From assembly GCF_030028105.1 (NCBI RefSeq), contig NC_092372.1:103110687-103174686 (forward strand): DNA of 64,000 bases, read 5' to 3'. Below, piece after piece: positions 578 through 44,760 of this stretch. A program made the translations under genes and the position numbers. Source of the DNA: Mobula birostris (Eukaryota). Position 1 is the stretch's first letter. Every line of letters begins with the position of its first letter. Under the pieces are notes generated by a model. It was not told the DNA's origin. It worked only from the letters and a program-made list of their open reading frames with translations, and made no database searches.

Positions 578-2294
578 TCAGTTTTTTGGTTTGTGTTGTT
601 TCCCACCTGTAAAATAATTGAATAATTTGTATCATTACCCACAGATTTTCAGCATATAGTATCTCAAGCAACAGAATTAAATGAGTTTTCAAACTGACTT
701 TCCACAAAAAGATGCCTTGGAAACTTGCTCATACCTCATTGATATTGTAAAAGGTATAAACCAAAATGCATTGTACTGTGTTCAAGTTCATTTCTAACTT
801 CTCACAAAGTTACACCATGCAGGCATGTGATGTACCATTGCTGTCTTCCCTGGCATCAACAGTTCATCTGTGTTGATCTGAGTTGAATCACTTTCTGGCA
901 CCCATTTACCATCCTATCATCTCTTTACAAGGATAAATTCTAGAGCAGGCCTTCCCACCTTTTATTGTACTATGGACTTTGTGTTGTGAACCCCTGTTCT
1001 AGAGAGTGAACACCATCATTAAGCAAGGGATCCATAGACCCCCATGCAGGGAACCCCTGTTCTAGAGAGTAAACACTGTCTGTAGCTCCAACACCAAGAT
1101 GCTGGAGACCAACCAGGACAAAGCATTCTGTGCAACTGCCACCCCAATAATTTATTCACCCAACTGCCCCTATTCTATGGCTGCAAACAATGGTGAAAAT
1201 CATTATTTAATATTTTATTCTAAACATCACTGGTTAGACGATAAATCATTCTTCATTCATTAATCTCAGCTGGAATTAAAAGGTGTGATAAACAGTATCA
1301 GACATCAGTTCTGCAATTAGTAGCTTTATGGTGACCCAATCTCTACTTCCTGGTCCCTACCACAGTTCCAAGGAACATTAATAATGTGAGAGGCTCAGCT
1401 CTGACAGCAAACATGGCGAATGAGTTTGCTGTCATTCCAGGTTACGGCTGGAATGACAGTGAGGAGCAGACAGCTCCCTCCACTATGAAGGGCCAGAGTC
1501 ACACAGCAAAAACAATTCTTTACATCTACGTTACTTAGCAGCTTAAGAGTAAAATTTTGACAAGCACCAAACACTGACCTTTCATGGCTGTTATGAGAGC
1601 CTGCAACCACCTGGCATCAGGATCCACACACACTTTCGTCTCATTTTTCAGGGTGACACTGCGAAAAGACAGTATCATTCAAAATTTAATTCACAGAAAC
1701 AGTTTGTCTTCTCTTGAAGTGCACAGTTTATGAAATAAACATCAGAAAAGGAATGAAGTTAAAGTTGATAATCTGGCTGCTTTACTCACATTATCTCTGC
1801 TCTCTCACAGTGGGATCCTTTGGGAATGTACTTCAAGCTCCTGATGGACCTCGGATGAATAACATCAAAGCTGGTCTGAATGCAGTGGCACCGTCCTTGT
1901 GCTCCTGGGATCGGAACACCTGAGGAAAGATTATATTCACTCAGATTTCATTGTTGCATCAAGGAGAACAAAGCCTGTAAAACTTGCTGATAATTTCTCC
2001 AGTGTTTTTGCTTCATCAAAGCATCACCAGACAGGAGCTTGCACATCTCACTCTCAAATGTTGCAGGAAAGCTGCATGAATTAATCTTATATAAATCTGA
2101 TGCTGATGCAATTTACAGTTACAGAGATTTAAATATTCCTCACTTTAATTGCTTTCTACATTGTAAACAATACAAGAACCACAAAATAGGTACATCACTT
2201 GAATAAAACTCCAGTTCAGATATCTCAACGTACCCTGTGCAGCAATGGCACACAGAAGGAGGATGAGGATGGTTACAGTGGCTGTTCTGTCCAT
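578..2294 (-). CDS. CXC chemokine copy 1 (ELR-negative, CXCL9/10/11- or CXCL8-like), 99 aa; coding exons 2294-2234, 1919-1790, 1658-1579, 606-578
   Basis: Manual splicing at GT-AG sites (intron phases 1,2,1, typical of CXC genes) gives MDRTATVTILILLLCAIAAQG|VPIPGAQGRCHCIQTSFDVIHPRSIRSLKYIPKGSHCERAEIIVTLKNETKVCVDPDARWLQALITAMKGGKQHKPKN*: signal peptide, CxC, C-xxx-EII, CVDP..W motifs. Exon 4 is the least certain part. Confidence 0.93.
946..1058. mobile_element. Small hAT-type MITE in chemokine intron 3 (also ~11815-11927, ~22747-22859 and 44320-44398)
   Basis: Copy 4 version is CAGGGGTTCCCAAC...GGGAAGGCCTG flanked by 8-bp CTCTAGAA/CTCTAGAG target duplication. Confidence 0.65.
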
Positions 2295-2382
2295 CTTCCA
2301 CTTTGTACTGCAGACGGATCTTCTGTTCAATGCAGCTTTTCTCTGCTGAATCAAGACATGCTGAAACCATTCAGTGAGCTTC

Positions 2383-2780
2383 TATTTATTGGGGCACTCT
2401 TCTCCAATTTGCATAATCTCATGCAGGGAACTCTGCCAAACACTGACATCCTGAAGCAGGGGATTTCCTGCTCCCAGCTCAGATCTACTTTCACTTCTGT
2501 AGCTTTACATTTCAGCATGTGTGTGCTTCAGAGCTGTAATAGGATTATCTATCAATATAACTGTTGGTTCTGTTGGACTAATTTGAAGATTGATTTGTTT
2601 ATTTTCAGGAAGAAATGAATAATTCACTTTTAGCAAAGTTAATGGTGCAAATGAACCAATTGTTTGCTTTCTAGCTTTAAAATTCCAGTTCTGGGCCTTA
2701 TTCTCACAGGTTTGGAAAGTCTGCATTTCAGGAGAGCATGCTCACTACAAGATGGAGTTTATACCTGCGGTTTCCGGGAA
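2383..2780 (-). promoter_or_regulatory. Proximal promoter of chemokine copy 1
   Basis: TATA-like AATAAATA (2383-2390), octamer ATTTGCAT overlapping a C/EBP-like site (2407-2417), NF-kB GGGGATTTCC (2459-2468), IRF element AGAAGTGAAAGT (2487-2498), GAS TTCCGGGAA (2772-2780); retained in paralogues. Confidence 0.75.
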
Positions 2781-4551
2781 ATTGCTCTCCCATTCAAAAT
2801 CTTCATGTTGCAGCATGTCTCCCAGCTCTTCAATGTTGCAGGTTTGTAAAATACATAGATATTTCCAACATTTGATACAATCCACACTTTGTCTGAAGAA
2901 TCAGCATGTTGCTGCATTGGTCCCAGACCTGGAATCATTCTTAAAACTTATCCATCCTCAGTGTTCACATTCTAAATCCCTGTACACCTCAGCGCTGAGA
3001 TTAAAGTTTTCGGGAATCCCAAATCATACTCAGCGCACAGATAGGCTTATAGCGATGCTGAAGCTGCTGTTTTTCAGCTCCAGGAGTCTTGAGGATGTGT
3101 TTACTTATACCTTCAGGATATGCAGTCTTTGCTGTATAGAATAATGTCTAGTCCTCAAGCCATTCTATACCTGATGACAACTACATTTCAATATTCTCAA
3201 AAGCACACACAAAATACTGGAGGAACTCAGCAAGTCAGGCAGTTTTGCGCAGATGTGAACTTTTAGGACGTATAGAATAGAGCCTGGTCTCTGAAGCATG
3301 CTATATTCTTTGATAACTACCATTGAATAAGCTTACTCAATTAAACGTTTAAACCTCAAGTATTATACTCAATTATTCTCTGGAATTTATTTAACACTTC
3401 CCCAATGTCTCTACCAGTCCCATACACGAGTGATAGGATATATTATGTATAGATAGTGGGTTTATATGTGAGCAAAAATATTTGTGTGGAGAATAGTGTG
3501 GGATAAGTTGGACAATATTGCAAGATCTGACCAGATTATTATGTGCTGTAATAAGGCTTTTGCTGGAATATTTGCTGCAGCAACAACTGTTCATTGTGCT
3601 CGTCATCCAAGAGTGACGAAACATCAGCTTCAGGGCTTTCTGGAGCTGGTTCAAGTTTTAGTTCCCAGATTTGTGAATTGTGGAGCCTGGAGCCGTGTTG
3701 ACTCCTCCCCCTGGGGAAAGTACAAACATCAGTGAAATTCAGAACTGCAGCACAGATTGCAGCCCGTGTTTGTGAGGCCACGTGATCTCCAGGAAGTCAG
3801 CTTGTTCGACACTTCATGATGTTCTATATATTGAAGTCTACACTTGTTCCTGTTTGCTTATCATTTGAAATACATCACAACAAACAAAAAGACTATTCCC
3901 AGATCAGCCATGTTACAAGCACGTTGGAGTAAACAGAAGCAATCTGTTTTAAGTGTGTATAGTATTTTTTACTGTTCTCCATTAACAAAGATAATGAGTT
4001 TCACGGGAGGTACAAGGCCAGGAGCCAACTTCTACTGCACTGGTAAAATGAATTGTTAATATATTAAATTCACCCATATCAGTAGTTCATGAAAATCAAC
4101 AAATTAATCAGCATGTCTAAAATTCATCACACAGGCACGTGTTTTTTTTTCAGAAAACCTGCACTTGACAACACGAGATTCCTGTACAACACTAGCAGTA
4201 TATTCAATGTCAGAATCTGCTTCCCTTTCTTTGGCTGTTGCATCCAATAATTTCCAAAGTTATGTTTTGATGCAGCTCTTTCAATACCACATAGCTACTT
4301 TGCCCAGGTTGCAGAGGTGGACCCAGTGTAATCAGTCTCCAAGTAGATTTAAACTGAACTATGTGAGGAATACAAAAGTGAATTGATTTTCTCAGCATTG
4401 GCGGCCAAAGCAGTTTAAATTCTGATCCTGACTTTGCTTAACCGCACATACTGTTAAAAAGAGACAGTACATATCCATCCTCAGTCTATCAGATTTCACT
4501 GACACACTGACGTCCATTCCAGTGTCAGGTGTGATAGGATTTGCAATGTTA

Positions 4552-7016
4552 GGGGCAAACTCCCATACTCCCATACTGTTAGAGTCTAGATGGTTTAGAG
4601 TTTGTAAAATGTGTTCAGGAAAGTTTTCTAAATCAATATATAGAGGGACCAACTAGAGGGGATGCAATATTGGATCTCCTGTTAGGAAACGAGTTAGGAC
4701 AAGTGACGGAAGTCTGTGTAGGGGAGCACTTTGGTTCCAGTGATCTTAACACCATAAGTTTCAATTTGATCATGGATAAGGATAGATCTGGTCCTAGGGT
4801 TGAAGTTCTGAACTGGAAGAAGGCCAAATTTGAAGAAATGAGAAAGGATCTAAAAAGCGTGGATTGGGACAGGTTGTTCTCTGGCAAAGATGTGATTGGT
4901 AGGTGGGAAGCCTTCAAAGGGGAAATTTTGAGAGTGCAGAGTTTGTATGTTCCTGTCAGGATTAAAGGCAAATTGAATAGGAATAAGGAACCTTGGTTCT
5001 CAAGGGATATTGCAACTCTGATAAAGAAGAAGAGGGAGTTGTATGAAACCTATAGGAAACAGGGAGTAAATTAGGTTCTTGAGGAGTATAAGAAGTGCAA
5101 GAAAATACTTAATTAAGAAAGTAATCAGAAGGGCTAAAAGAAGACATGAAGTTGCCTTGGCAGTCAAAGTGAAGGAAAATCCAAAGAGCTTTTGCAGGTA
5201 TATTAAGAGCAAAAGGATTGTAAGGGATAAAACTGGTCTTCTTGAAGATCAGAGTGGTCGGCTATGTGCGGAACCAAAGGAAATGGGGGAAATCTTAAAT
5301 AGGTTTTTTGCGTCTGTATTTACTAAGGAAACTGGCATGAAGTCTATGGAATTGAGGGAATCAAGTAGTGAGATCATGGAAACTGTACAGATTGAAAAGG
5401 AGGAGGTGCTTGCTGTCTTGAGGAAAATTAAGGTGGATAAATCCCCAGGACCTGACAGAGTGTTCCCTCGGACCTTGAAGGAGACTAGTGTTGAAATTGC
5501 GGGGGCCCTGGCAGAAATATTTAAAATGTCGCTGTCTACGGGTGAGGTGCCGGAGGATTGGAGAGTGGCTCATGTTGTTCCGTTGTTTGAAAAAGGATTG
5601 AAAAGTAATCCGGGAGATTATAGGCCGGTGAGTTTAACGTCGGTAGTAGGTAGGTTATTGGAGGGAGTACTAAGAGACAGAATCTGCAAGCATTTGGATA
5701 GACAGGGACTTATTAGGGAGAGTCAACATGGCTTTGTGCGTGGTAGGTCATGTTTGACGAATCTATTGGAGTTTTTCGAGGAGGTTACCAGGAAAGTGGA
5801 TGAAGGGAAGGCAGTGGATATTGTCTACATGGACTTCAGTAAGGCCTTTGACAAGGTCCCGCATGAGAGGTTAGTTAGGAAAATTCAGTCGCTAGGTATA
5901 CATGGAGAGGTGGTAAATTGGATTAGACATTGGCTCAATGGAAGAAGCCAAAGAGTGGTGGTAGAGAATTGCTTCTCTGAGTGGAGGCCTGTGACTAGTG
6001 GTGTGCCACAGGGATCAGTGCTGGGTCCATTGTTATTTGCCATCTATATCAATGATCTGGATGATAATGTGGTAAATTGGATCAGCAAATTTGCTGATGA
6101 TACAAAGATTGGAGGTGTAGTAGACAGTGAGGAAGGTTCTCAGAGCCTGCAGAGGGACTTGGACCAGCTGGGAAAATGGGCTGAAAAATGGCAGATGGAG
6201 TTTAATACAGACTAGTGTGAGGTATTGCACGTTGGAAGGACAAACCAAGGTAGAACATACAGGGTTAATGGTAAGGCACTGAGGAGTGCAGTAGAATAGA
6301 AGGATCTGGGAATACAGATACAAAATTCCCTAAAAGTGGCGTCACAAGTAGATAGGGTCGTAAAGAGAGCTTTTGGTACATTGGCCTTTATTAATCAAAG
6401 TACTGACTATAAGAGCTGGAATGTTATGATGAGGTTGTATAAGGCATTGGTGAGGCCGAATCTGGACTATTGTGTTCAGTTTTGGTCACCAAATTACAGG
6501 AAGGATATAAATAAGGTTGAAAGAGTGCAGAGAAGCTTTACAAGGATGTTGCCAGGACTTGAGAAACTCAGTTACAGAGAAAGGTTGAATAGGTTAGGAC
6601 TTTATTCCCTGGAGCGTAGAAGAATGAGGGGAGATTTGACAGAGGTATATAAAATTATGATGGGTATAGATAGAGTGAATGCAAGCAGGCTTTTTCCACT
6701 GAGGCAAGGGGAGAAAAAAAACAGAGGACATGGGTTAAGGGTGAGGGTGAAAAGTTTAAAGGGAACATTAGGGGGGGCTTCTTCACACAGAGAGTGGTGG
6801 GAGTATGGAATGAGCTGCCAGACGAGGTGGTAAATGTGGGTTCTTTATTAGCATTTAAGAATAAATTGGACAGATACATGGATGGGAGGTGTATGGAGGG
6901 ATATGGTCCGTGTGCAGGTCAGTGGGACTAGGCAGAAAATGGTTCGGCACAGCCAAGAAGGGCCAAAAGGCCGGTTTCTGTGCTGTAGTTTCTATGGTTT
7001 CTATGGTTTTCTATGG
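4552..7016 (+). mobile_element. CR1-clade LINE, 5'-truncated, ORF2 (RT) disrupted
   Basis: RT motifs [40 protein letters not shown]; in-frame stops and frameshifts; (TTCTATGGT)n 3' tail; empty site visible near 29335 and 32635. Confidence 0.93.
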
Positions 7017-7665
7017 TTAGAGTTTCCAAATGTTCGACTTCATTCAGAAAATTATTCTTTCAGGTTCCCACTCCGGATACCAGGTACACACTCAGTTTGG
7101 GGTTGATGGCTACTGGCAGTATTTTTGGGAGGTAAGGACCTCCCATGTACGGTTGAGCCTGAATAAAGAGACACTTTTGTATCTAGACCACATCAATACA
7201 TCAATATTCCAGACCCTTGTGCCCAGGAACAATTCACGGACCATTCAGAAATCTGATGGTGGAGGGGAAGAAGGTGCTCTAAAACACTGAGAGTTTATCT
7301 TTAGGTTCCTATGCTTCCTCCCTGATTATAGTCAGAAGAAGAGGTCACACCACTAATGTTGGACATCCTGAAAGATAGACTCTGTATCCTGGACAAAACG
7401 TATTTAGAAGGTGTTCTCGATGGTGGGTGGGCAGATGCCCGTGATGGGCCAGGCTGAAACAACGACCTCTGCAGGCTCTTACAATCCTGTCTATTGGTGT
7501 ACACAGTCTAATTCAAGTGAATTAGCAATTGAACATCAGCTAGCACATGGGCTTCACACAGCAAGTTCTTGATATAGTGCGAAGGGGGACAACTACAAAG
7601 TGAGTTCTTCCACACTGGAATTAATGCTCACACGTAAGAGGGAAGATGTTCAAACACAATATGAT

Positions 7666-7843
7666 NNNNNNNNNNNNNNNNNNNNNNNNNNNNNNNNNNN
7701 NNNNNNNNNNNNNNNNNNNNNNNNNNNNNNNNNNNNNNNNNNNNNNNNNNNNNNNNNNNNNNNNNNNNNNNNNNNNNNNNNNNNNNNNNNNNNNNNNNNN
7801 NNNNNNNNNNNNNNNNNNNNNNNNNNNNNNNNNNNNNNNNNNN
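7666..7843. other. N run (gap or masked sequence); others at 18535-18776 and 37958-38105
   Basis: Runs of N; the first two are at the same position in the duplicated unit but differ in length. Confidence 0.95.
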
Positions 7844-7996
7844 GTTATCCACCCTCCTGTTAATGAGCCATTGAGTTTAAGGGACAGTTGGGATTAACAA
7901 TTAGTGATAACCTGTGAATTAGCAGTAAGAAATATGACATTTAATGGTCCATGCTGGACACTTGAGCTATTCTTAATGCCAACTTCAGTTTTCTCA

Positions 7997-9860
7997 CATA
8001 GAACATAGAACACATAACAGTACACCACTATACAAGCCATTTGGCTCATGATGTTGTGTCGACATTTTAACTTCCTCCTAAATCACTCCAGTGCTTTCCA
8101 CAAACATTGACTTCCATTTTTCTTCCATCCACGTGCCTATCATAAATGCCTTTAATATATCTACCTTCAACACCACCCCGACATCTTGTTTCATGCAGCC
8201 ATCAATCCCTGTACAAAAAACGTAGCTCTGACCTGCACCTATACTTTACTCTAATCACCTTAAAATTAAGTCCTCTCATATTTACTTCCCGGGAAAAGGG
8301 CACTGAATGTTCACTCTGTTAATGTCTCTCACCATTGTTTACACTGCTGTAAAATCAGCTCTCGCCCTCCTACTTCCAAAGAGGAAAACCCAAGCCTGCT
8401 CAACCTTTCCTCATAATACATGATGTCTAATCCAGCCCATCTCCTCTGCAACCTCTCTGAAGCTTCCCCGTCCTCACTACAATGAGGCAATCAGAAATGA
8501 GCACAATATTTTAAGTATGGTCTAATCAGAGTTGTCCAGAAATGCAAAATTATCTTGTAACTCTTCAACTCTGTTATTCAACTTCTGAAAGGCAAAACAT
8601 CATGGCGTTCTCAAACACTTTACCAATCTGCACATCATTTTTGAAAGATATACATACATGGACCCCACAATCACTTTGTTCCTCCACACTGCTACGAATT
8701 CTGCCATTAACCCTGTACCTGGCCTTCAAGTTCAAACTCACAAAATGTATCACTTCACACTTTTCCAGATCAAACTCCATCTCCCACTTATGCATCCTTC
8801 AATTTCCGATTATAACCTACGGCAACCTTCCACACTATCCACAACATCGCCAACCCTTGCAACACCCAGAAACTTACTAAGCTGTCCAACTACTTACTCA
8901 TCCAAGTCATTTATAAATATCACAAAGAACAAGGCTCTCATAACAGATCACTGTGAAACACCTCTGGATACCAACCTGCAGGCAGAATATGCTCCATCTA
9001 CTACCACCCTCTGCCTTCTGTGGGCAAGCCAATTCTGTATCCATGAGGGCAGTTCTCCGTGCATCCCATGCCTCCTAACTTTCCGAGTGAGCATACTATT
9101 GGGAGCCTTCTCAACTACCTTACTAAAAGCCATATACACCACATCCACTGCTCTGTCTTAATCAAATTGTATGCTCATTTCCTTGCAGAATTCAATCAGG
9201 CTTGTGAGACATGATCTGTCCTTTGCAAACTCACACTGACTATCCCTGATCAAATCTATGCTTCTCCAAATGTAAATCCTGTCTCAAAGACTTCTCTCCA
9301 ATCATTTTCCCACCAATGGCATAAGATTCACAGATCTATCATTCTGAAGTTTATCCAAATTACCTTACTTGAACAAAGAAATAATATTTGTCCATCTCCA
9401 ATCTTCTGGCACTACTATTGTGAACAGTAAGAATGCAAAGATCATCACTAAAGGTGCAGCAATCTCTTCTCTTGCTCTCTCAGTACCCGGGGTAAACCTT
9501 GTTCAGTCACAGGGAATTACCTATCCGAATGTTTCTCAAGAGTTCTACACATCCTCTTTCTTAATGTTGACATGTCGCAGCCTGTTCAATGATAACCTCT
9601 CATTTGTGAAGCTTCCTCCCGCAGGTGAATGGTGAAACAAAGCATTCATTGAGGACCTCCCCTGATCCTTCAAATAAAAGTATGTTTCCACTCTTATCTC
9701 TGACGGTCATAACTCAAGCTAATCATCCTCTGGTTCTTCACATACAGTACATGTAGAATGAGCTGATGTTTTCCTTAATCTTACTCACCAAGGTCTTCTC
9801 ATGTCCTTTTCTGGCTCTCCAAAATCCAGTCTTAATCTCCTCCTGGCTACCTTACAATTC
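7997..9860 (-). mobile_element. Old degraded CR1 LINE belonging to the duplication unit
   Basis: Minus-strand remnants DVVYMAFSK, WIQNWLAHRRQRVVVDG, WEMEFDLEKCEVIHF; CATAGAA tail at the left end. Confidence 0.8.
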
Positions 9861-10424
9861 TTAAAGCCCAAAATTTCAGTTTCTGGTCTGATGTTAATTG
9901 CACTGCAGATCCGGCTTGCCTGTGTTAAGTTACAATGACAGGTATGTCAATTGCCCTGACAAAGAATCTTCTGTCTCAACGATTCAACAATTCAGTGACA
10001 TTGTACTAATCTGTGCCCTTCATCTGTGCAATTGACTAAATGTCACAACTATCTCAGTGTGTTTTAACCAAGATGAGTTCAGCGATTTCAATTTACCGGC
10101 ATTTCAGGCGTTGTATGCAAATATTTAAAGTGTCATGAGGCAAACTTGAGCTCAACTATATAGCACTATATACATTGTACATTGTGCTTATGATAATTAT
10201 CCCTTGAAAATATCACCCATTATCTTAATTCTCCGAATACAAAACATTAAATTTAAGCTGAAAGTTTTGAAACCCGCTAAAATTCCTCACAGCCATTGTG
10301 CAGATTTGGCTGAGGACGCACTGATCTTCATTCTTTAATTAGTTCATTTATTAAATGAAGAAACTCAGAACCATATACTGAAGATTCAGAACCACTGACA
10401 ACAAATTCTTTTTTAGAAATACAA

Positions 10425-10430
10425 TTTATT
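10425..10430 (-). terminator. Probable polyadenylation signal (AATAAA) of copy 2; equivalents near 21357-21362 (copy 3) and 45858-45863 (+, copy 4)
   Basis: AATAAA about 1.0-1.1 kb past the stop codon, followed by U/GU-rich sequence and present in three paralogues; a second AATAAA about 160 bp nearer the stop is an alternative. Confidence 0.45.
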
Positions 10431-11446
10431 TTAATTTCTTAAATACATTTGAGGAATGTTCAACAAATTCATTCACATATAACAAAAGTCCAGCTTTGAT
10501 CGATAATAAACTGAATCCAGTCAGTAAAAGTTCCCTCAAGACAAAATATTTCCATCCACATATAAAGTTTATTCTTACTTAAAACTTTTATTTCATCCAG
10601 TGATTATCAGACTATTAGCAGCACTATCTTCTAAAATGTAGATATTTTACATAAAAATTACATCAGTGGAGAGTTTACTTCAAATGATTCTAGATAGATT
10701 CTAAAATCTGATGCTTTACAAAAAAACCACCATATTTTCATGAAAATATCAACTGTCAAAAACTTGCAGTAAAAAGGCACAAGGTGATTTCAGACATTTT
10801 TACTGTTATTTCTATAGAAGAATGTTTCATTCAAATTAGAACACTTTTGGTCCAATGTACTGCCATCAGTATATCATCATTTCCGAAAGAATTTAAGCAG
10901 GAAAGGGGAAGGTAGGAGTGGGAATTGTTGTAAACAATCCCATGGGTCCTCCTGCTTTAATTTCAGGGATGGCAGAGAGCACAGTCCACCACCCATCACT
11001 GGCTTCCCTTGCGGACTGAGATCATTTTAACTCTGTAGTCATGGAGATTCATCCACCATCTTAGTTTAATACCACCATCATCTCCCAACCCGATAGCCAA
11101 TATTATATTTTAGCAAATGACTCCAGACTCATTTACACTTTTCCACAAGGTCACAGGTCCAGAATCTAGTTGAATTACCAGAAATTGCACAAGAACCCTA
11201 TGATTTTCAGAAAATGTAACTCAAACATCAGATGGTGTCCTCAAATGCAAACAGGTCGTGTGTCCAGGTAAAAAAAATGTCCCGTGACAAGGAGGAACAG
11301 CAAGATCAATCTCTGAAGACAATGAAGAGGAGACACTGGAATGAACCACTGGATGGTGATATCACAGAGTCAATACCCAGGGCTGAGCTTCCATCATTCC
11401 CCATCGGATGATCCAGAGATGGAATTCATTCGCTCATTTTGCAGCT

Positions 11447-13163
11447 TCAGTTTTTTGGTTTGTGTTGTTTCCCACCTGTAAAATAATTGAATAATTTGTA
11501 TCATTACCCACAGATTTTCAGCATATAGTATCTCAAGCAACAGAATTAAATGAGTTTTCAAACTGACTTTCCACAAAAAGATGCCTTGGAAACTTGCTCA
11601 TACCTCATTGATATTGTAAAAGGTATAAACCAAAATGCATTGTACTGTGTTCAAGTTCATTTCTAACTTCTCACAAAGTTACACCATGCAGGCATGTGAT
11701 GTACCATTGCTGTCTTCCCTGGCATCAACAGTTCATCTGTGTTGATCTGAGTTGAATCACTTTCTGGCACCCATTTACCATCCTATCATCTCTTTACAAG
11801 GATAAATTCTAGAGCAGGCCTTCCCACCTTTTATTGTACTATGGACTTTGTGTTGTGAACCCCTGTTCTAGAGAGTGAACACCATCATTAAGCAAGGGAT
11901 CCATAGACCCCCATGCAGGGAACCCCTGTTCTAGAGAGTAAACACTGTCTGTAGCTCCAACACCAAGATGCTGGAGACCAACCAGGACAAAGCATTCTGT
12001 GCAACTGCCACCCCAATAATTTATTCACCCAACTGCCCCTATTCTATGGCTGCAAACAATGGTGAAAATCATTATTTAATATTTTATTCTAAACATCACT
12101 GGTTAGACGATAAATCATTCTTCATTCATTAATCTCAGCTGGAATTAAAAGGTGTGATAAACAGTATCAGACATCAGTTCTGCAATTAGTAGCTTTATGG
12201 TGACCCAATCTCTACTTCCTGGTCCCTACCACAGTTCCAAGGAACATTAATAATGTGAGAGGCTCAGCTCTGACAGCAAACATGGCGAATGAGTTTGCTG
12301 TCATTCCAGGTTACGGCTGGAATGACAGTGAGGAGCAGACAGCTCCCTCCACTATGAAGGGCCAGAGTCACACAGCAAAAACAATTCTTTACATCTACGT
12401 TACTTAGCAGCTTAAGAGTAAAATTTTGACAAGCACCAAACACTGACCTTTCATGGCTGTTATGAGAGCCTGCAACCACCTGGCATCAGGATCCACACAC
12501 ACTTTCGTCTCATTTTTCAGGGTGACACTGCGAAAAGACAGTATCATTCAAAATTTAATTCACAGAAACAGTTTGTCTTCTCTTGAAGTGCACAGTTTAT
12601 GAAATAAACATCAGAAAAGGAATGAAGTTAAAGTTGATAATCTGGCTGCTTTACTCACATTATCTCTGCTCTCTCACAGTGGGATCCTTTGGGAATGTAC
12701 TTCAAGCTCCTGATGGACCTCGGATGAATAACATCAAAGCTGGTCTGAATGCAGTGGCACCGTCCTTGTGCTCCTGGGATCGGAACACCTGAGGAAAGAT
12801 TATATTCACTCAGATTTCATTGTTGCATCAAGGAGAACAAAGCCTGTAAAACTTGCTGATAATTTCTCCAGTGTTTTTGCTTCATCAAAGCATCACCAGA
12901 CAGGAGCTTGCACATCTCACTCTCAAATGTTGCAGGAAAGCTGCATGAATTAATCTTATATAAATCTGATGCTGATGCAATTTACAGTTACAGAGATTTA
13001 AATATTCCTCACTTTAATTGCTTTCTACATTGTAAACAATACAAGAACCACAAAATAGGTACATCACTTGAATAAAACTCCAGTTCAGATATCTCAACGT
13101 ACCCTGTGCAGCAATGGCACACAGAAGGAGGATGAGGATGGTTACAGTGGCTGTTCTGTCCAT
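11447..13163 (-). CDS. CXC chemokine copy 2, 99 aa; coding exons 13163-13103, 12788-12659, 12527-12448, 11475-11447
   Basis: Copy 1 shifted by 10869 bp; same protein and intact splice sites. Confidence 0.93.
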
Positions 13164-13251
13164 CTTCCACTTTGTACTGCAGACGGATCTTCTGTTCAAT
13201 GCAGCTTTTCTCTGCTGAATCAAGACATGCTGAAACCATTCAGTGAGCTTC

Positions 13252-34611: not shown

Positions 34612-35127
34612 CGGAACCATATCGCAGCCACCACCCTGTGACCAGACATTGTCCTAGTGTCTGAGTCTACTAAGCAAGTGGTGCTGCTGGAGCTGACAGT
34701 CCCATGAGAAGATAGCTTGGAAGAGGCCTTTGAAAGGAAGCTCTCCAAGTACGCAGGACTGTTCAGCAACTGTCAGCAGGCTGGATGGAGAGCGAGGTGT
34801 CTCCCAATGGAGGTTGGTTGTAGGGGATTCGCAGCCTGGTCCTTAGTTAGAGCCTTCAGCATTTTGGGCATCGAGGGAGAGAGGAAGAGGAGAGCCATCC
34901 GCAGTACCACCAATGCGGCAGAGAGGGCCTCAAGATGGCTGTGGCTCAAAAGAGGGGAGCCATGGAATTATAAGTAGCTAGCCATCTGGACACAAGCTGG
35001 GGTCTGATCAGCCCCGGTTGGGTCACCTGGAGGAGGTTGTATGATGTTGAAAGACCCGAAACACCCGATGATTCCAAGAACATCACTGAAGATGTGTCCA
35101 GAAGCATCAGTAGATGTATGTACACAG
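34612..35127 (+). mobile_element. 3' fragment of an RLE-type (R2 superfamily, HERO/NeSL-like) non-LTR retrotransposon
   Basis: PDIVLVSESTKQVVLLELTVP*EDSLEEAFERKLSKY...EVGCRGF, a PD-(D/E)xK restriction-like endonuclease motif; absent at the homologous site near 26610-26635. Confidence 0.75.
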
Positions 35128-35960
35128 AAATTTTATGGTGAGAAGTATATTGAAACATTTTAGCTATAACTTTCTGTGTTGAATTCCTGGTTAAACACTG
35201 ACGGGTGGATTTTGATCTTATTGTCCTTAATAGTTTGTATAAACATCAGGGTTATCAAGTCAAATTCATTGACCTTTAGCTATGTACATGTATACTGCCA
35301 AAAGAGACAATGTTTCTCCACACCAGGGTGTAAAGCACAGTAGTACACATAATACACAATAACTAAGAAAATTAAGAATTAAGTCTACAAATTAATTGTA
35401 CATAGCTAAACAAAGTACAGCAAATAAATATTGTAGGGTACAGTACAGATTATGCAGTGACAGCAAATGGAATGCAGCAGGGAGCTCAGAAGCCTAATCA
35501 ACGTTAGTTATCAAAGGATAAAGCATGTTTAAGAGTACATGCACTATTCTATAAATCCTAAAGGTTCACATCTGCACAAGGCTGCCTGACTTGCTAAGTT
35601 CCTTCAGTATTTTGTGTGTGCTTTTGAGAATATAGTAACGTAGTTGTCATCAGATATAGAATAGCTAGTGGACTAGATACTATTCTGTACAGTAAAGACT
35701 GCGTATCCTGGAGGTTTAAGTATACACAGCCTTAAGATTCCTTGAAATGAAAAGCTGCAGCTTCAGCATCGCACTTTGTATATCTGTGAATGGAGTATGA
35801 TTCAGGAACCCTCAAAACTTTAACCCCAGTGCTGAGGTGTGCAAGGATAGGGTTGGAGACTAGAATTTCTTGAAAAATATGAACACTGATATCTGCATAT
35901 TATTTTTGGATCACAACCTGAACAATCCTGGGTGATTCTGAAATGAAACCCGGATGAAAT

Positions 35961-38900
35961 TCATCAGGGAGAGTGAGGAGGTGATAGAGAGGAGCTATAG
36001 GCAGATAGTCACTCCGGGGATTGGGGAGACAGATAAGTGGGTAACAGTCAGGACAGGGAAGGGCAAGAAGCAGGTGCTAGAAAGTATTCCTGTGGCAGTT
36101 ACTCATAACAATAAGTACTCCTGTTTGAGTACTGCTGGGGGAGACGACCTTCCTGGGGGAAGCAACAGTGGTTGCGCCTCTGGCACAGAGTCTGGCCCTG
36201 TGGCTCAGAAGGGTAGGGAAAGGAAGAGGATAGGAGCGGTAATAGGGGACTCTACAGTTAGGGGGTCAGACAGGCAATTCTGTGGACGCAGGAAAGAAAC
36301 GTGGATGGTAGTTTGCCTCTCACGCCAGGGTCCAGGATGTTTCTGATCATGTCCACAATATCTTGAAGTTGGAAGGAGAACAGCCAGAGGTCGTGGTACA
36401 TATTGGTACCAACGACATAGGTAGGAAAAGGGAGAAGGTCCTGAAAGCAGACAACAGGAAGTTAGGAAGGAAATTGAGAAGCAGGACCTCAAAGGTAGTA
36501 ATCTTGGGATTACTACCTGTGCCACGTGACAGTGAGTATAGGAATAGAATGAGGTGGAGGATAAATGCATGGCTGAGGGATTGGAGCAGGGGGCAGGGAT
36601 TCAGATTTCTGGATCATTGGGACCTCTTCTGGGGCAGATGTGACCTGTACATAAAGGACGGGTTGCACTTGAATCTGAGGGGAACCAATATCCTGGCGGG
36701 GAGGTTTGCAAAGGCCGTTAGGGAGAGTTTAAACTAGAATTGCTGGGGGTTGGGAACCAAACTGAAGTGACGGAGGAAAGGGAGGTTGGCTCACAAACAG
36801 AGAAAGCTTGGAGACAGTGCGAGAGGGAGGATAGACAGGTGATAGAGAAGGGATATGCTCAGACTGATGGTTTGAGTTGTGTCTATTTTAATGCGAGGAG
36901 TATCATGAATAAAGTGGATGAGCTTAGAGCATGGATCAACACTTCGAGCAATGATGCTGTGGCCATTACAGAGACTTGGACAGTGCAGGGGCAGGAATGG
37001 TTACTTCAAGTGCCAGGCTTTAGATGTTTCGGAAAGGACAGGGAGGGAGGCAAAAGAGATGGGGGCGTGACACTGTTGATTGGAGATAGTGTTACGGCTG
37101 CAGAACGGGAGGAAATCATGGAGGGGTTGTCTACAGAGTCTCTGTGGGTAGAAGTTAGGAATAGGAAGGGGTCAATAACTCGAGTAGGTGTTTTTTATAG
37201 ACCACCCAATAGTAACAGGGACATTGAGGAGCAAATGGGGAGACAGATTCTGGAAGGAGTAATAATAAAAGGGTTGTTGTGGTTGAGGATTTTAACTTCC
37301 CAAACATCGATTAGCATCTCCCTAGAGTGAGGGGTTTAGATGGGGTAGAGTTTGTTAGGCATGTTCAGGAGGGCTTCTTGACACAATATGTAGATAAAAC
37401 TACAAGAGGAGAGGCTGTACTTGATCTGGTACAGCTGCACATTCCTTCACCTGCAATTCTAAAATCCGAAAAGCTCCGAAAACCGAAGTGTTTTTCGCCA
37501 ACAGCTAGTGTCACTCAGGTGTGACGTAGCAGCGCTTGCAGAGGCCGCCAGACGTCAGTTGTGGCTCAGCGCTCGTACTGGTTACATGTGCATTTGCTGT
37601 TCACTGATATTTTGTGTTCACTATTGACTTTGTGTTTAATTTCACTGTGAAAATGTCAAAAAGAGCTGCAGATACCCCTATGAGTAACAATGAGAAAAAG
37701 AGAAGGAAGCATCTGTTTCATTATCAGTAACACAGAAAGTGGAGTTATTGCAGAAGCTTGATCGTGGTGTGTCTGTGCGGCATCTTACTGAAGAAAATAG
37801 TGTTGGAACTACCACTGTATATGATTTAAATAAACAGAAAGACAAGTTACTGAAGTTTTATAGTGGCAGTGACGTTCTACATTTATTCCAATAAGTCATT
37901 TACCATATGTTTGATTCAGTTCATTTGTATATTTTTATGTTTTATTGAATGTTTTTGNNNNNNNNNNNNNNNNNNNNNNNNNNNNNNNNNNNNNNNNNNN
38001 NNNNNNNNNNNNNNNNNNNNNNNNNNNNNNNNNNNNNNNNNNNNNNNNNNNNNNNNNNNNNNNNNNNNNNNNNNNNNNNNNNNNNNNNNNNNNNNNNNNN
38101 NNNNNGTCCTAAAGTCCACCACACAGAGGCAGGTTAAATAAGGGACTTGAGCATACGTGTTTTTTGGTGTCGGTGGTGGGGGGGTGGTCTGAAATCCGAA
38201 AAATTCTGAATTCCAAAATGCAACTGGCCTCAAGGATTTTGGATAAGGGACTGTGGACCTATATTGGAAATGACCCTGGTCAGGTGTCAGGTCTCTCAGT
38301 GGGACAGCATTTTGGAGATAGTGATCACAATTCTATATCCTTTACCATAGCATTGGAGAAGGGTAGGAACAGACAAGTTAGGGAAACATTTAATTAGAGT
38401 AAGGGGAAATATGAGGCCAACAGACAGGAACTTGGAAGCATACATTGGAAACAGATGTTCTCAGGGAAATGTACAGAAGAAATTGTGGCAAATGTTCAGG
38501 GGATATTTGCATAGTGTTCTTCATAGATACAGGGGACAGGAAAGGATGGTAGGGTACAGAACCGTGGTGTACAAAGACAAGAAGAAAAGAAGAGCTTATG
38601 AAAAGTTCAAAAAACTAGGTAATGATAGAGATGTAGAAGATTATAAGGCTAGCAGGAAGGAGCTTAAGAATGAAATTAGGAGAGCCAGAAGAGGCCATGA
38701 GAAGGCCTTGGTGGATAGGATTAAGGAAAACCCCCGTCATTCCACAAGTTTGTGAAGAGCAAGAGGATAATATGTGGGAGAATAGGACTAATCAAGTGTA
38801 ACAGTGGAAATGTGTGTATGGAACCAGAGGAGATAGCTGAGGTATTTAATGAATACTTTACTTCAGTATTCACTATGGAAAAGGATCTTGGCGATTGTAG

Positions 38901-40527
38901 GGATGACTTGCAGTGGACTGAAAAGCTTGAGCATGCAGATATTAAGAAAAAGGATGTGCTGGAGCTTTTAGAAAGCATCAAGTTGGATAAGTCACCGGGA
39001 CCGGACAGGATGTACCCCAGGCTACAGTGGGAAGCGAGGGAGGAGATTGCTGAGCCTCTGGCGATAATCTTTGCATCATCAATGAGAATGGGAGAGGATC
39101 CGGAGGATTGGAGGGTTGTGGATGTTGTTCCCTTATTCAAGAAAGGGAGTAGAGATGGCCCAGGAAATTATAGGCCAGTGAGTCTTAATTCAGTGGTTAG
39201 TAAGTTGATGGAGAAGATCCTGAGAGGCAGGATTTATGAACATTTGGAGAGGCATATTATGATTAGGAATAGTCAGCATAGCTTTGTCAAAAACAGGTCA
39301 TGACTTTCAAGCCTGATTGAGTTTTTTGAGGATGTGACTAAACACATTGATGAGGGTAGAGCCGCAGATGTAGTGTATATGGATTTCAGCAAGGCATTTG
39401 ATAAGGTACCCCATGCAAGGCTTATTGAGAAAGTAAGGAGGCATGGGATCCAAGGGGACATTGCTTTGTGGATCCAGAAATGGCTTGCCCACAGACCGGT
39501 TGTAGACAAGTCATATTCGGCATGGTGACCAGTGGTGTGCCTTAGGAATCTGATCTGGGACCCCTGCTCTTTGTGATTTTTAAAAATGATCTGGATGAGG
39601 AAGTGGAGGGATGGGTTAGTAAATTTGCTGATGACACAATGATTGGGGGTGTTGTGGATAGTGTGGAGGGCTGTCAGAGGTTACAACGGGACATTGATAG
39701 GATACAAAACCGGGTTGAGAAGTGATAGATGGAGCTCAACCCAGATAAGCGTGAGGTGGTTCATTTTGGTAGGTCAAATATGATGGTAGAATATAGCATT
39801 AATGGCAAGATTCTTGGCAGTGTGGAGGATCAGAGGGATTTTGGGGTCCGAGTCCACAGGACACTCAAAGCAGCTGTGCAGGTTGATTCTGTGGTTAAGA
39901 AGGCATACGGTGTATTGGCCTTCATCAATCGTAGGATTGAGTTTAAGAGCCGAGAGGTAATGTTGCAGCTATATAGGACCCTGGTCAGACCCCACTTGGA
40001 GTACTGTGCTCAGTTCTGGTCGCTTCACTACAGGAAGGACGTGGAAACCATAGAAAGGGTGCAGAGGAGATTTGCAAGTATGTTGCCGGGATTGGGGAGC
40101 ATGCCTTATGAGAATAGGTTGAGTGAACTCAGCCTTTTCTCCTTGGAGCGATGGAGGATGAGAGGTGATGTGTAAAGGTGTACAAGATAATGAGAGGCAT
40201 TGATCTTTTGGATAGTCAGAGCCTTTTTCCCAGAGCTGAAATGGCTAGCACAAGAGGGCATAGTTGTAAGGTGCTTGGAAGTAGGTACAGAGGAGATGTC
40301 AGGGGTAAGTTTTTTACGTAGAGAGTGGTGAGTGCATGGAATGGGCTGCGACAGTAGTGGTGGAGGTGGAAATGATAGGGTCTTTTAAGAGACTCCTGGA
40401 TGGATACATGGAGCTTTGAAAAATAGAGGGCTATAGGTAAGCCCAGGTAGTTCTAAGGTAAGTACATATTTGGCACAGCTTTGTGGGCTGAAGGGCTTGT
40501 ATTGTTCTGTAGGTTTTCTATGTTTCC
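35961..40527 (+). mobile_element. Long CR1 LINE (ORF1 SGNH esterase, ORF2 APE endonuclease and RT), inactivated
   Basis: ORF1 VIGDSTVRG, VVVHIGTNDI, DGLHLN; ORF2 [34 protein letters not shown]; many stops; empty site near 24955-24965. Confidence 0.92.
37432..38261 (+). mobile_element. Tigger/pogo DNA transposon derivative nested in CR1 (contains N gap)
   Basis: TA duplications splitting CR1 ORF2, imperfect TIRs, HTH-psq/CENP-B-N remnant (KVELLQKLDRGVSVRHL...TTVYDL..QKDKL). Confidence 0.75.
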
Positions 40528-40908
40528 CTGAAAATTATTGTAAAAGAGGCTTCAAGCAGAGTTTGGTGGCAAAGAGATTCTGCAAGAGGAGGGCATACTG
40601 TAGGTAAATGAGTTCTGTTGTGTGGAGCATGCTCTGGGATTTGCAGACTGGGGGAGGAGATGAGGCAATGCACGTTTGCTCTGTAGCAACTGTGTGAGGC
40701 CAGCAGAGCAAACATTTAAAATGTGAACACTGAGGATGGATAAGATGCAAGAATGATTCCAGCTCTGGGACCAAAGCAACAACATGCTGATTCTTCAGAG
40801 AAAGTGTAGATTCTATCCAATGTTGGAAATGTCTTCACATTTTCCAAACCTGCAGCATTAAGGAGCTCGGAGATGTTGTAAAATGCAGATTTTGAATGTG
40901 AGAGCAAT

Positions 40909-41297
40909 TTCCTGGAAATCACAGGTATAAACTCCATCTTGTGGCCAGCATGCTCTTTTGAACTGCAGAGTTCCCAATTCTGTGAGAAGCAAAGCCCAGA
41001 ACTGGAATTCTAAAGCGTGAAAGGAAACAATTGGTTCAATTTGCACCAATAACTTTGCTAAAAGTGAATTATACATTTCTTCCTGAAAATAAGCAAATAA
41101 ATCTTCAAATTAGTCTCACAGAATCAATATCTACATCCAGCTGCAGCTCTGAAGCACACACATGCTGAAATGTAAAGCTACAGAAGTGAAAGTAGATCTG
41201 AGCTGGGAGCAGGAAATCCCCTGCTTCAGGACGTCAGTGTTTAGCAGAGTTCCCTGCATGAGATTATGTAAAGTGGAGAGGAGTGTCCCAATAAATA
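40909..41297 (+). promoter_or_regulatory. Proximal promoter of chemokine copy 4
   Basis: GAS TTCCTGGAA (40909-40917), IRF element AGAAGTGAAAGT, kB GGAAATCCCC, CRE-like GGACGTCA, TTATGTAA in place of the octamer, TATA-like AATAAATA (41290-41297). Confidence 0.72.
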
Positions 41298-41385
41298 GAA
41301 GCTCACTGAATGGTTTCAGCATGTCTCGATTCAGCAGAGAACAGCTGCATTGAACAGAAGATCCGTCTGCAGTACAAAGTGGAAG

Positions 41386-44300
41386 ATGGACAGAACAGCC
41401 ACTGTAACCATCCTCATCCTCCTTCTGTGTGCCATTGCTGCACAGGGTACGTTGAGATATCTGAACTGGAGTTTTATTCAAGTGATGTACCTATTTCGTG
41501 GTTCTTGTGTTGTTTACAATGTAGAAAGCAATTAAAGAGGGGAATAGTTAAATACCTGTAACTGTAAACCCCTTCTGTATTAAGTTAAGATTAATTCATG
41601 CAGCTGGACTGCAGAGGTAGAAAGTAAAGTGAACTTTGGTCAAAGAGGATTTGTATTGTGTTTTTGGCTAAAGCTGTTCTTTAGTCTTTTTATTTCATGC
41701 TGCTAATTAAGATTCAGGAGAAAAATCTCATATTAATGCAAGTTTTTGCAACATTTGAGAGTGAGATGTGCAAGCTCCTGTCTGGTGATGCTTTGATGAA
41801 GCAAAAACACTGGAGAAATTATCAGCAAGTTTTACAGGCTTTGTTCTCCTTGAAGCAACAATGAAATCTGAGTGAATATAATCTTTCCTCAGGTGTTCCG
41901 ACCCCAAGAGCACAAGGACAGTGCAAATGCATTCGGACCAGCTTTGATGTTATTCATCCGAAGTTCATCAGGAGTTTGAAATACATTCCGAGAGGATCGC
42001 GCTGTGGGAGAGCGGAGATAATGTGAGTAAAGTAGCCAGATTATCACCTTGAACTTTATTCCTTTACTGATGTTTGTTTCATAAACTATGCACTTTAAGA
42101 AAAGATATTATTTCTGTGACTAAATTTTGAACAACACTTTCTTTTCATAGTGTCACACTGAAAAATGAGAAGAAACTGTGTGTGGATCCTGATGCCAGGT
42201 GGTTGCAGGCTCTCATAACAGCCATGAAAGGTCAGTGTTTGGTGTTTGTCAAAATTTACACTTAAGCTGTTAGGTAATGTAGATGTAAAGAATTGATTTT
42301 GCTGTGTGACTCTGGTCCTTCATAGTGGAGGGTGCAGTCTGCTCCTCACTGTTGTTCCAGCTGTAACCTGGATTATAGGAAGGATATCAGTAAGATTGAA
42401 GGAGTGCAGAGATTTACTAGGATGTTGCTGGATCTTCAGGAGTTGAATTATAGGGAAAGATTGAACAGGTTAGGACTTTAATCCTTGGAGCGTAGAAGAA
42501 TGAGGGGGGGTTTGATAGAGGTTTACAAAATTATGTGTCATGGTCCAATCCGTGAAATCCGCGTTCTGGTTCATGGTCTGGTCCATGGACTCCGGACTCC
42601 GGGTCTTCCGGCTGTCCCTTGTTTCAGTTGGGCTTAACCATAGGCACCTGATGCTCATCTTGGGGCTGGGAATATAAGTGGCCCTGGGTTTGTCTTGTCA
42701 GTATCCTGCCCTTGCCTCTGTGGGTTAAGTCAGGCTGCCTTTGCCATTACCCTAGACTCTTCCCTTCTCTTCCCCTCCTTCTGAAGCCTTTTGAAGCCTT
42801 CCCTGTTTTGCTGTCAAGTTCTACTGCTGGAGCAAGACCAGAACCTTGCTGTGTCAAGATTAGAAACTGTCTATCATTGTTTGGAATTGTTTTTGTGTCC
42901 TTGCCTTCACTAGGTAAGTCTGGCTGTTTGCCGTTACCTTGTGTTGGGAACCGTCTCTGTGTCCATGCCTTTGCTAGGTATGTCTGGCTGTTTGCCACTA
43001 CCTTGTGCTAGGAGCCATCTCATCCTGTTCAGCATTCTGTGTATGAGTCCTGGCCCTACATCCTGTTCCCAAGGAAGGGTCCCAGCTCTATGTTCTGTGT
43101 ATGAGTCCCAGTCCTATGTCCTGTTCCCAAGGAGGGGTTCTGGCTCTGTGTTCCATGTTCCTGTCTCTAAGTCCATGGCTCTGTGTTCCCATGCTCTAGA
43201 CCAAGGCTCCAGGTGTCCAATCCTCGTCCAAGGCTGCAGGCATCCAGTCCTTGTCCAAGGCTCTGAGGTTCCTGTCTCTCAAGACCACATTATGTCTTTG
43301 CCTAGTTCTGGAGTCCCAGCCTGAGTCTAGACCCAGGTTCTGGGTCCTTGCCCAGTCTTTGGCTTAGAGTCCATACCCGAGCCTCGAAGAGCCCGAGCCT
43401 CGTCAGGTACTCGCCTAGTTCTGGGGTCTGAGCCTGAGTCAAGACCCAAGTTCTGGGTCCTTGTCCAGTCTCTGGCTCAGAGTCCATACCCAGGCTCCTA
43501 GTTCCCAGTTCCTTGCCCTTTTCCTGCTTTCCTAGCCAAAGTCCTAGTCTGTGTCTTGCGTTTGGGTCTGCCACCAACGTCCCCAGCTTATGACATTATG
43601 AGGAGTACAGAGAGAGTAAATTCAAGTAGGCTTTTTCCACATAGATTTGGAGAGATAAATATGAGAGGGCATAGCTTTAGGGTGAAAGGGGAAAGGTTAA
43701 GGGGGAACATTAGGGAGAACTTCACTCAGAGGTGGGAGTGTGGAATGAGCTGCCATCTGATGTGGTAAATGCAGGCTCACTCTTAAGTTTTAAGAATAAA
43801 TTGGATAGATACATGGATGGGAGAGGTCTGGAGGGTTATGAACTCGGTGCAGGTCAATGGGACAAGTGGAATAAAGTTTTGGCACAGACTGGAAGGGCCT
43901 AATGGCCTGTTTTCTGTGCTGTAGTGTTCTGTGGTCCTATGGGCAGCAAACTCATTTGCCATGTTTGCTGTCAGAGCTGAGCCTCTCACTTTATTAACGT
44001 TCCTTGGAACATTACTGTGGTAGGGACCAGGAAGTAGAGGTTGAGTCACTATAAAGCTATTAATTGAAGAAGTGATGGCTGTTACAATTATTACACCTTT
44101 TAATCCTAGCTGAGGCCAACAAATGAAGGATGGTTTCATTCTAATCAGAGGTGTTAGATATAAAATATTAAATAGTGATTTTTCACCATAGGTTGCAACC
44201 ATTGAAAAGGGGTGGGGGAGGGTATAAATTATTGGGGTGGCAGTTGCACAGAATGATTTGTCCTGGATGGTCTCCAGCATCTTGGTGTTGGAGCTACAGG

Positions 44301-44760
44301 TAGTGCTTACTCTCTAGAACAGGGGTTCCCAACATGGGGTCCTTGGATCCCTTGCTTAATGGTATTGGTCCACAGTATAAAAAAGGTGGGAAGGCCTGCT
44401 CTAGAGTTTTTCCTTGTAAGGAGATGATAGGATGATAAATGGGTGCCAGGAAGTGATTCAACTCAGATCAATACAGTAGATAGTGAACTGTTGCTGCCAG
44501 GGAAGACAGCAATGGTACATCACATGCCTGCATGGTGTAACTTTGTGAGAAGTTAGAAATGAACTTGAACACAGTACAATGCATTTTGGTTTATACTGTT
44601 TACAATATCAATGAGGTATGAGCAAGTTTCCAAGGCATCTTTTTGTGGAAAGTCAGTTTGAAAACTCTTTTAACGCTGTTGCTTGAGACACTATATGCTG
44701 AAAATCTGTGGGTAATGATACAAATTATTCAATTATTTTACAGGTGGGAAACAACACTAA
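41386..44760 (+). CDS. CXC chemokine copy 4 (diverged, inverted), 95 aa; coding exons 41386-41446, 41893-42022, 42151-42230, 44744-44760
   Basis: Spliced product MDRTATVTILILLLCAIAAQG|VPTPRAQGQCKCIRTSFDVIHPKFIRSLKYIPRGSRCGRAEIIVTLKNEKKLCVDPDARWLQALITAMKGGKQH*; canonical GT-AG sites; intron 3 expanded by CR1/LTR insertions. Confidence 0.93.
42372..43940 (+). mobile_element. CR1 3' fragment in intron 3 of copy 4, split by a solo LTR
   Basis: 42372-42535 and 43596-43940 match the 3' end of CR1 4552-7016; absent from intron 3 of copies 1-3. Confidence 0.85.
42536..43595. mobile_element. Solo LTR
   Basis: TGTCAT...ATGACA termini with exact 5-bp TSD TTATG (42531-42535, 43596-43600); internal sub-repeats; no coding capacity. 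Confidence 0.8.

Follow-up and report, generated by a model that had tools for sequence, protein, structure and literature searches.

The DNA analysed here (the window) is a stretch of 64,000 nucleotides (nt) of Mobula birostris (contig NC_092372.1, positions 103,110,687 to 103,174,686 of the forward strand) that carries an array of CXC chemokine genes, called g1 to g4 below. Chemokine exons were located by a six-frame motif scan of the window and then joined at GT..AG sites. As the initial annotation had proposed, this gave four intact spliced genes of four exons each, with GT..AG introns throughout, no in-frame stop and four cysteines in every product; the outer ends of the set are at 578 and 44760. 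Three genes lie on the minus strand: g1 at 578..2294 (coding exons 2294-2234, 1919-1790, 1658-1579 and 606-578), g2 at 11447..13163 (13163-13103, 12788-12659, 12527-12448 and 11475-11447) and g3 at 22379..24095 (24095-24035, 23720-23591, 23459-23380 and 22407-22379). The fourth, g4, is an inverted copy on the plus strand at 41386..44760 (41386-41446, 41893-42022, 42151-42230 and 44744-44760). Intron phases 1-2-1 and exons of 61/130/80 nt are common to all four, followed by a last coding exon of 29 nt in g1-g3 or 17 nt in g4, and the products have 99, 99, 99 and 95 residues (g1 to g4). A tblastn search with 11 CXC proteins found no fifth chemokine gene, pseudogene or stray exon in the window.

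Each protein starts with a leader of 21 residues ending in AQG. The coding sequences of g1 and g2 are identical and g3 differs from them at 3 of 297 nt (two residues), while the 12 residue differences between g4 and g1-g3 all fall within the mature part. The triplet before the CXC motif reads QGR in g1-g3 and QGQ in g4, so that the Glu-Leu-Arg (ELR) motif is absent exactly as had been noted. Two further motifs ascribed to the whole set hold for part of it: IHPKFI is found in g4 only (IHPRSI in g1/g2, IHPTSI in g3) and GR-C-x-C is confined to g1-g3. The Pfam family IL8 (PF00048) scored above its cut-off for all three exon pieces tested. An AlphaFold model of the protein (pLDDT 80.6) has three strands and a C-terminal helix, and Foldseek matched it to CXC chemokines, a fold search being unable to separate CXC subfamilies. 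An N-glycosylation sequon, NET, lies at residue 69 of g1-g3 and is missing from g4. The signal-peptide exon 1 (2234-2294, 13103-13163, 24035-24095 and 41386-41446) shows no difference at any of its 61 positions across the four genes, in contrast to exon 2, which differs at 16 of 130 positions between g2 and g4; the same leader is found in most myliobatiform copies.

Every one of the four models agrees letter for letter with a RefSeq protein of M. birostris: g1 and g2 with P0049 (XP_072108019.1 / XP_072108021.1), g3 with P0054 (XP_072108022.1) and g4 with P0004 (XP_072108023.1), the last retrieved using g4 exon 2. Cluster look-ups gave 14 accessions and 12 distinct proteins of the family in this species, some of which may be isoforms, and the window carries only part of the Mobula array. 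All 31 matches in a full-length protein search came from rays, skates and sharks. RefSeq names the four proteins 'interleukin-8-like' or 'alveolar macrophage chemotactic factor-like', names that likely indicate the wrong subfamily. Such a name carries little weight because RefSeq also labels shark CXCL13-like genes 'interleukin-8-like'; the shark proteins P0212, P0258, P0279 and P0302 bear it and yet group with CXCL13-like sequences.

Placement in cluster B and wider kinship

Our reference for gene placement was the survey of Kawasaki, Ohta, Castro and Flajnik 2024 (PMC10801876; text with Datasets S1 and S2), from whose table Mobula is absent. The survey divides gnathostome CXCL genes into cluster A, which holds CXCL8-like genes, cluster B and the CXCL13 region. 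All chondrichthyan genes with 1-2-1 introns lie in cluster B, where most rows read 61/130/80/17 with QGR and are located between cnot6l plus cxcl13-like genes and tnip3. Chondrichthyan cluster A genes adjoin jchain and anxa5 and are mostly 64/136/84, 1-2-2 and xLR (S/N/D/K-LR) (PMC10801876). The anatomy of g1-g4 (61/130/80/17-29, phases 1-2-1, QGR) equals the cluster-B rows of Dataset S1 and differs from both cluster A (about 64/136/84, 1-2-2) and CXCL13 (61/133/84, 1-2-2). In addition, five protein matches sit in cluster-B rows, namely sawfish XP_051893270.1 (79% identical to g4) with those ending in 334.1, 247.1 and 322.1, and whale shark XP_048458695.1. Membership of g1-g4 in shark cluster B is thus firmly placed and, judged by gene anatomy and close relatives, they are not plain CXCL8 orthologues. 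Sharks also have a long-branched AGR subfamily (P0076, P0312, P0313, P0316 and P0319) that is allied to the QGR group (82/86) and whose genes stand at the end of cluster B in the whale-shark and catshark tables.

The same table removes the idea of a lineage-specific expansion or a categorically new family. By our hand count of 1-2-1 rows there are 7 genes in whale shark, 7 in zebra shark, 5 in bamboo shark, 6 in white shark, 6 in catshark, 9 in sawfish, 10 in thorny skate and 5 in little skate, so that cluster B is multi-copy (5-10 genes) in all 8 elasmobranchs tabulated, and elephant shark has 3 (PMC10801876). The four genes are already annotated and, since the existence, anatomy and cluster assignment of their family have been published, they come as no great surprise.

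How cluster B of cartilaginous fishes relates to that of bony vertebrates is a wider question. Human cluster B consists of CXCL9 (KGR), CXCL10 and CXCL11 (RGR), and a common lineage of the shark and human clusters would rest on the synteny argument of the survey. Bichir cluster B also adjoins cnot6l, and cluster B of coelacanth and bichir is without CXCL8-like genes. Coelacanth cluster B has one gene with 1-2-1 phases and KGR, and an exon 1 of 61 nt combined with xGR is seen again in cluster B of caecilian and coelacanth (PMC10801876). For trees we combined named matches with unnamed representatives, 66 of several hundred fetched proteins, hand-picked for balance; unnamed rows were grouped by look and motif, which makes motif counts by group partly circular. 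In a full-length tree (LG+C20, lamprey root) the genes of the QGR group come together on a single branch (95/93), separate from both cluster A (94/73) and CXCL13 (98/91). A mature-domain tree (LG+G4, 65 rows, lamprey left out) gave B 76/50, A 58/80 and CXCL13 95/85. The g1-g4 group lies outside cluster A in both best trees, and the CXCL13 branch leaves out the QGR genes in both. The trees lean to CXCL9-11 kinship (76/50); the base of an exploratory FastTree of 163 rows was unresolved.

On balance we read g1-g4 as cluster-B CXC chemokines that would be the likely counterpart of CXCL9/10/11 and not of CXCL8, inducible by infection or interferon and attracting CXCR3-bearing leukocytes, a reading that as a whole stands slightly better than even. 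Its components differ in strength: common descent with CXCL9-11 seems probable and so does inducibility by infection or interferon, while the predicted use of CXCR3 could go either way.

A number of observations weigh against this reading. The lamprey-rooted tree joins the QGR group to the side of A plus CXCL13 (93/81) and not to bony B. Approximately unbiased (AU) tests leave both groupings standing, the one with bony B (p 0.168) and the one with cluster A (p 0.198), and the likelihood cost of the cluster-A constraint (2.3) is below that of the bony-B constraint (4.2). The annotated lean to CXCL9-11 is a reasonable one that falls short of proof. Profile searches scored CXCL8 at 66 bits, CXCL7 62, CXCL13 60, CXCL10 58, CXCL9 50 and CXCL11 46, and CXCL8 ranked first by sequence and fold searches alike. 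Raw identity shows no preference for CXCL9-11. The xGR motif occurs also in a lamprey protein (GGR) and in only 6 of 13 bony-B rows, and may be ancestral. Human CXCL9, CXCL10 and CXCL11 have intron phases 1-2-0, 1-2-2 and 1-2-0, and in lungfish the genes with 1-2-1 phases are located near CNOT6, on a chromosome other than that of cluster A and JCHAIN (PMC10801876). Lastly, no flanking cellular gene was found in the window (18 of the 41 listed long open frames scanned), and synteny is for that reason borrowed from relatives.

Identity values bear on why the proteins resemble CXCL8 at all. The g1-g4 group has a mean identity of 40.0% to bony A, 39.6% to shark A, about 38% to the CXCL13 groups and 33.5% to bony B, and shark A is 47.1% identical to bony A and 33.6% to bony B. 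Bony B is therefore equally far from shark A and from the g1-g4 group, which suggests that bony B changed fast and that the CXCL8-like core is likely ancestral. The mixture of CXCL9/10/11 and CXCL8 features that had been described thus likely reflects a slowly changing ancestral core and not a chimaera.

Two other family assignments have to be considered. The genes could form a second CXCL8-like lineage, as the RefSeq names have it, encoding an ELR-negative attractant of neutrophils and phagocytes that would likely act via CXCR1/2. CXCL8 is indeed top among solved-structure and fold matches, the AU test with cluster A does not reject the grouping, and CXCL8-like proteins of fish still attract phagocytes without ELR (PMC4690017, PMC2928728), a further point against our reading. 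Yet CXCL8-like genes with xLR and 1-2-2 phases are already present at a different locus in sharks and rays, xG precedes the Arg position in none of 24 cluster-A rows as against 15 of 16 elasmobranch-B rows (unnamed rows being grouped partly by such motifs), and the name itself is weak as seen above. We regard this lineage as distinctly unlikely.

Alternatively g1-g4 could belong to a branch of the cluster-B/CXCL13 neighbourhood found only in chondrichthyans, inducible but without one-to-one descent from the CXCL9-11 ancestor and likely using another receptor or several. In accordance with this, they have a supported branch of their own (95/93) that lies between bony B on one side and A plus CXCL13 on the other. 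The same holds for their identities, which are about equal for the A and CXCL13 groups and smallest for bony B, and for the distance of only ~130-170 kilobases (kb) between shark cluster B and cxcl13-like genes (coordinates of PMC10801876). Against it, shark and bony CXCL13 form a group without the QGR genes (98/91; 95/85), the cnot6l neighbourhood is as in bichir cluster B, and the 61-nt exon 1 with xGR is shared with caecilian and coelacanth cluster B. We consider such a branch rather doubtful, although a better candidate than a second CXCL8-like lineage, and keep to the CXCL9/10/11 counterpart in what follows.

Promoters, transcripts and predicted function

Upstream of each gene is a putative promoter with a site for interferon regulatory factors (IRF), a kappaB site and a gamma-activated site (GAS). 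The proximal promoter of g1 lies at 2459..2498 on the minus strand (IRF 2487-2498, kappaB 2459-2468; GAS 2772-2780), that of g2 at 13328..13367, minus (IRF 13356-13367, kappaB 13328-13337; GAS 13641-13649), that of g3 at 24260..24299, minus (IRF 24288-24299, kappaB 24260-24269; GAS 24573-24581) and that of g4 at 41182..41221, plus (IRF 41182-41193, kappaB 41212-41221; GAS 40909-40917). Counted from the ATG the 12-nt IRF site is at -204, kappaB at -174 and GAS at -486 (-477 in g4) in all four genes. The IRF 12-mer occurs in the window at those four places only and forms part of PRDI, an element of the interferon-beta enhancer to which IRF-3 and IRF-7 bind (PMC3167601). Strict kappaB appeared in 0.2-0.4% of 2000 shuffles, while the IRF core (32-35%) and GAS (25-29%) alone were common; the three combined were found in 1 and 0 of 2000 shuffles and in none of 562 background windows. 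GAS has three differing middles among the copies, with the consensus kept in every one. Between g2 and g4 the proximal 220 nt differ at 8 of 220 positions and the sequence further up at 59 of 427 (p 3e-5); the IRF and kappaB sites are inside this conserved block and GAS is further upstream.

These numbers have to be discounted in several ways, again to the disadvantage of the interferon reading: the patterns and the 220-nt cut were picked after the motifs had been seen, the four promoter copies are not independent and amount to one observation, and gene conversion could be an alternative source of the conserved block. No AP-1 or C/EBP consensus was found in the 600 nt upstream of the genes. 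CXCL10 is controlled through an interferon-stimulated response element (ISRE) and kappaB (PMC9696077) and CXCL8 through NF-kappaB, AP-1 and C/EBP (PMC9890491). The kappaB site would thus also suit a CXCL8-like gene, but the IRF and GAS sites in the absence of AP-1 or C/EBP speak against that assignment. Literature searches, which did not extend to most subscription papers, turned up no work on how cluster-B genes of sharks or rays are induced or on their promoters or receptors; the text of the reference survey holds no such data on cluster-B genes (PMC10801876), the accessible part of PMC10518110 has no usable promoter map, and that of PMC10792014 does not mention sharks by the terms used.

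Expression was followed in contigs of 3 runs of one study, whose type (RNA) is a guess. Exons 2-3 and the 3' end are covered, as is exon 1 in 2 of 3 runs, and intron 1 is uncovered. A contig that leaves out precisely intron 2 (42022>42151, GT..AG) is present in two of the three runs; junctions 1 and 3 were not among the 15 of 54 contig joints listed. All 8 exon-2 differences listed in the contigs have the g1/g2 letters, and spliced contigs of g1/g2 type are observed. One X1 contig has only some of these letters and for this reason comes from another copy. For g4 itself there is a weak hint of transcription: a 278-nt exact match to its 3' untranslated region was found in 2 of 3 runs, in a segment that differs from g1-g3 at 52-54 positions, and the exon-2 contigs are not of g4 type. 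In a bamboo-shark single-cell marker table none of 6 gene ids (5 of cluster B, 1 of cluster A) was among the rows listed, so that the table assigns them no cell type; it does have as a marker of B cells LOC122553041, the neighbour of cnot6l in Dataset S1. Single-cell work on sharks places a cxcl10-like gene in T cells in two papers (PMC11372145, PMC10529500), in one of them together with cxcr3-like and ifng-like. We tried to match this 'cxcl10-like' or 'Cxcl10' gene with the family of g1-g4, and it could not be tied to these genes.

Put together, a plausible course of events can be outlined. Infection or interferon would activate IRF, NF-kappaB and STAT1, upon which several near-identical cluster-B genes would be transcribed. 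Cleavage after AQG would release a basic chemokine of 74-78 residues with an isoelectric point (pI) of 9.5-10.1, which once secreted likely binds glycosaminoglycans and likely signals via CXCR3, attracting leukocytes that bear this receptor. An arginine before the CXC motif matters for CXCR3 activation, and g4 with its QGQ is without it. A CXCR3 homologue is reported from the little skate (PMC9252580). Human CXCL9-11 are inactivated by DPP4, and the absence of ELR together with Pro at position 2 defines their group (PMC5536003). Taking the predicted cleavage as the mature start, g1-g4 combine the same two features, and their Pro at position 2 would let DPP4 trim and inactivate the protein as with CXCL9-11.

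More tentatively, the QGR genes may be the CXCR3 ligands of cartilaginous fishes and a CXCL9-11-type axis driven by IRF, NF-kappaB and STAT1 may have existed in the jawed-vertebrate ancestor, sharks keeping a near-ancestral and slowly changing ligand, myliobatiform rays multiplying it by unequal crossing-over, and g4 being tuned or antagonistic; we hold this wider scheme to be possible but somewhat less than even. The tables of an older survey show no gene of the CXCL9/10/11 group and no CXCR3 for elephant shark (PMC3568907). If cluster B does represent an interferon-inducible CXCR3 ligand, the branch of the chemokine system by which Th1, CD8 and natural killer (NK) cells are recruited would date back as far as adaptive immunity itself, and what has been recorded in sharks as 'IL-8-like' expression would have to be interpreted anew. 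The promoter sites make the interferon/CXCR3 idea directly testable.

Growth of the array

Repeat comparison showed that positions 1..24776 (no strand assigned) consist of tandem units of ~10.9 kb that all carry a single gene and the same fragments of long interspersed nuclear elements (LINEs). Unit 1-7665 has 16 mismatches to 10870-18534, 14 of them in 1-562 and 2 in 563-7665, and 7844-13844 is 98.95% identical to 18777-24776. An older inverted copy of the unit at 30649..46139 (plus strand) carries g4, is 82-91% identical to the tandem units and stands head to head with g3; the introns of g4 differ from those of g2 by 6-15%. Nothing distinguishes g1 from g2 in exons, introns or the 600 nt upstream, and the far-downstream 250 nt of g2 have 2 differences to g3 and 7 to g1. 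This mosaic, nearer to g3 than to g1, is what unequal crossing-over predicts and therefore points to that process, by which the array would have grown, adding dose more than new function. Positive selection was not seen in the mature part of g2 vs g4, where the proportions of nonsynonymous (pN) and synonymous (pS) differences are 0.075 and 0.123.

Part of the apparent expansion might instead be an artefact, with g1 and g2 being one gene assembled twice. Their identity over the whole gene, with 2 differing positions in 563-7665, and the runs of N at the same place of each unit would fit this. The 14 differing positions in 1-562 and the mosaic downstream of g2 fit unequal crossing-over better, near-identical copies are present in other rays too, and the two N runs, having identical flanks and unequal lengths, look more like masked repeats than gaps. 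We judge this artefact very unlikely, and it would leave g3, g4 and the family assignment untouched.

The age of the array was approached with a tree of 58 elasmobranch proteins, in which a single shallow group (93/95) unites 34 copies of Mobula, Hypanus and Hemitrygon, clustered within it at species level, and two deeper types are common to several species. The deeper types shared across species together with the shallow species-level clusters indicate a family that is old with turnover that is ongoing. The expansion described as recent is thus recent for the youngest duplications, these copies with g1 = g2 among them, while the family is ancient.

The remainder of the window is rich in repeats. 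Runs of N lie at 7666-7843, 18535-18776 and 37958-38105; the first two have identical flanks and a length difference of 64 nt, which accounts for unit spacings of 10869 and 10933, and they likely are masked variable simple repeats more than gaps. Between g3 and g4, inverted arms at 28892-29957 and 32018-33083 (1066 nt) are 98% alike, and similarity along this inverted alignment drops to ~87-90% at a greater distance (27642-28500), which suggests recent conversion across the palindrome. Intron 3 of g4 holds an insert of 1060 nt at 42536-43595, inside a LINE fragment, that looks like a solo long terminal repeat (LTR): its ends are TG..CA and carry short inverted repeats, and there is a target duplication of 5 nt. 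Each tandem unit contains a fragmented CR1-like LINE with a reverse-transcriptase frame of 381 residues (4583-6833, 15452-17702), and more LINE fragments are found at 36312-40175 (esterase and endonuclease frames) and 47975-53480. Of the 18 long open frames scanned, 10 match nothing; the other 8 match families that typify LINE fragments (reverse transcriptase, endonuclease, esterase or ALKBH8_N).

Comparison with known chemokines

The closest known system is chondrichthyan cluster B, with which g1-g4 share exons of 61/130/80/17-38 nt, 1-2-1 phases, QGR, the Glu and W-L/V positions, a basic pI, a tandem multi-copy array and up to 79% identity to listed sawfish genes. What differs is that the Mobula family is larger and very homogeneous and that g4 has QGQ.

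CXCL8 and the chondrichthyan cluster-A (xLR) genes provide the best solved-structure match and share core elements, HPKFI (in g4), EII, C-x-DP and W. In contrast to them, g1-g4 have no E/D/S/N-LR, other exon sizes and third-intron phase, another locus in relatives and no AP-1 or C/EBP consensus upstream.

With CXCL9/10/11 and their caecilian, coelacanth and teleost (CXCb/CXCL11-like) relatives, g1-g4 have in common the published cluster label, the absence of ELR, a high pI, xGR as in CXCL9 and CXCL11, Pro at the predicted mature position 2 and a putative promoter logic of IRF plus kappaB as in CXCL10. They depart from this group in a mature domain that is only 32-35% identical, in a third-intron phase unlike that of the human genes and in one extra residue before CXC (position 30 vs 27 nt, Dataset S2).

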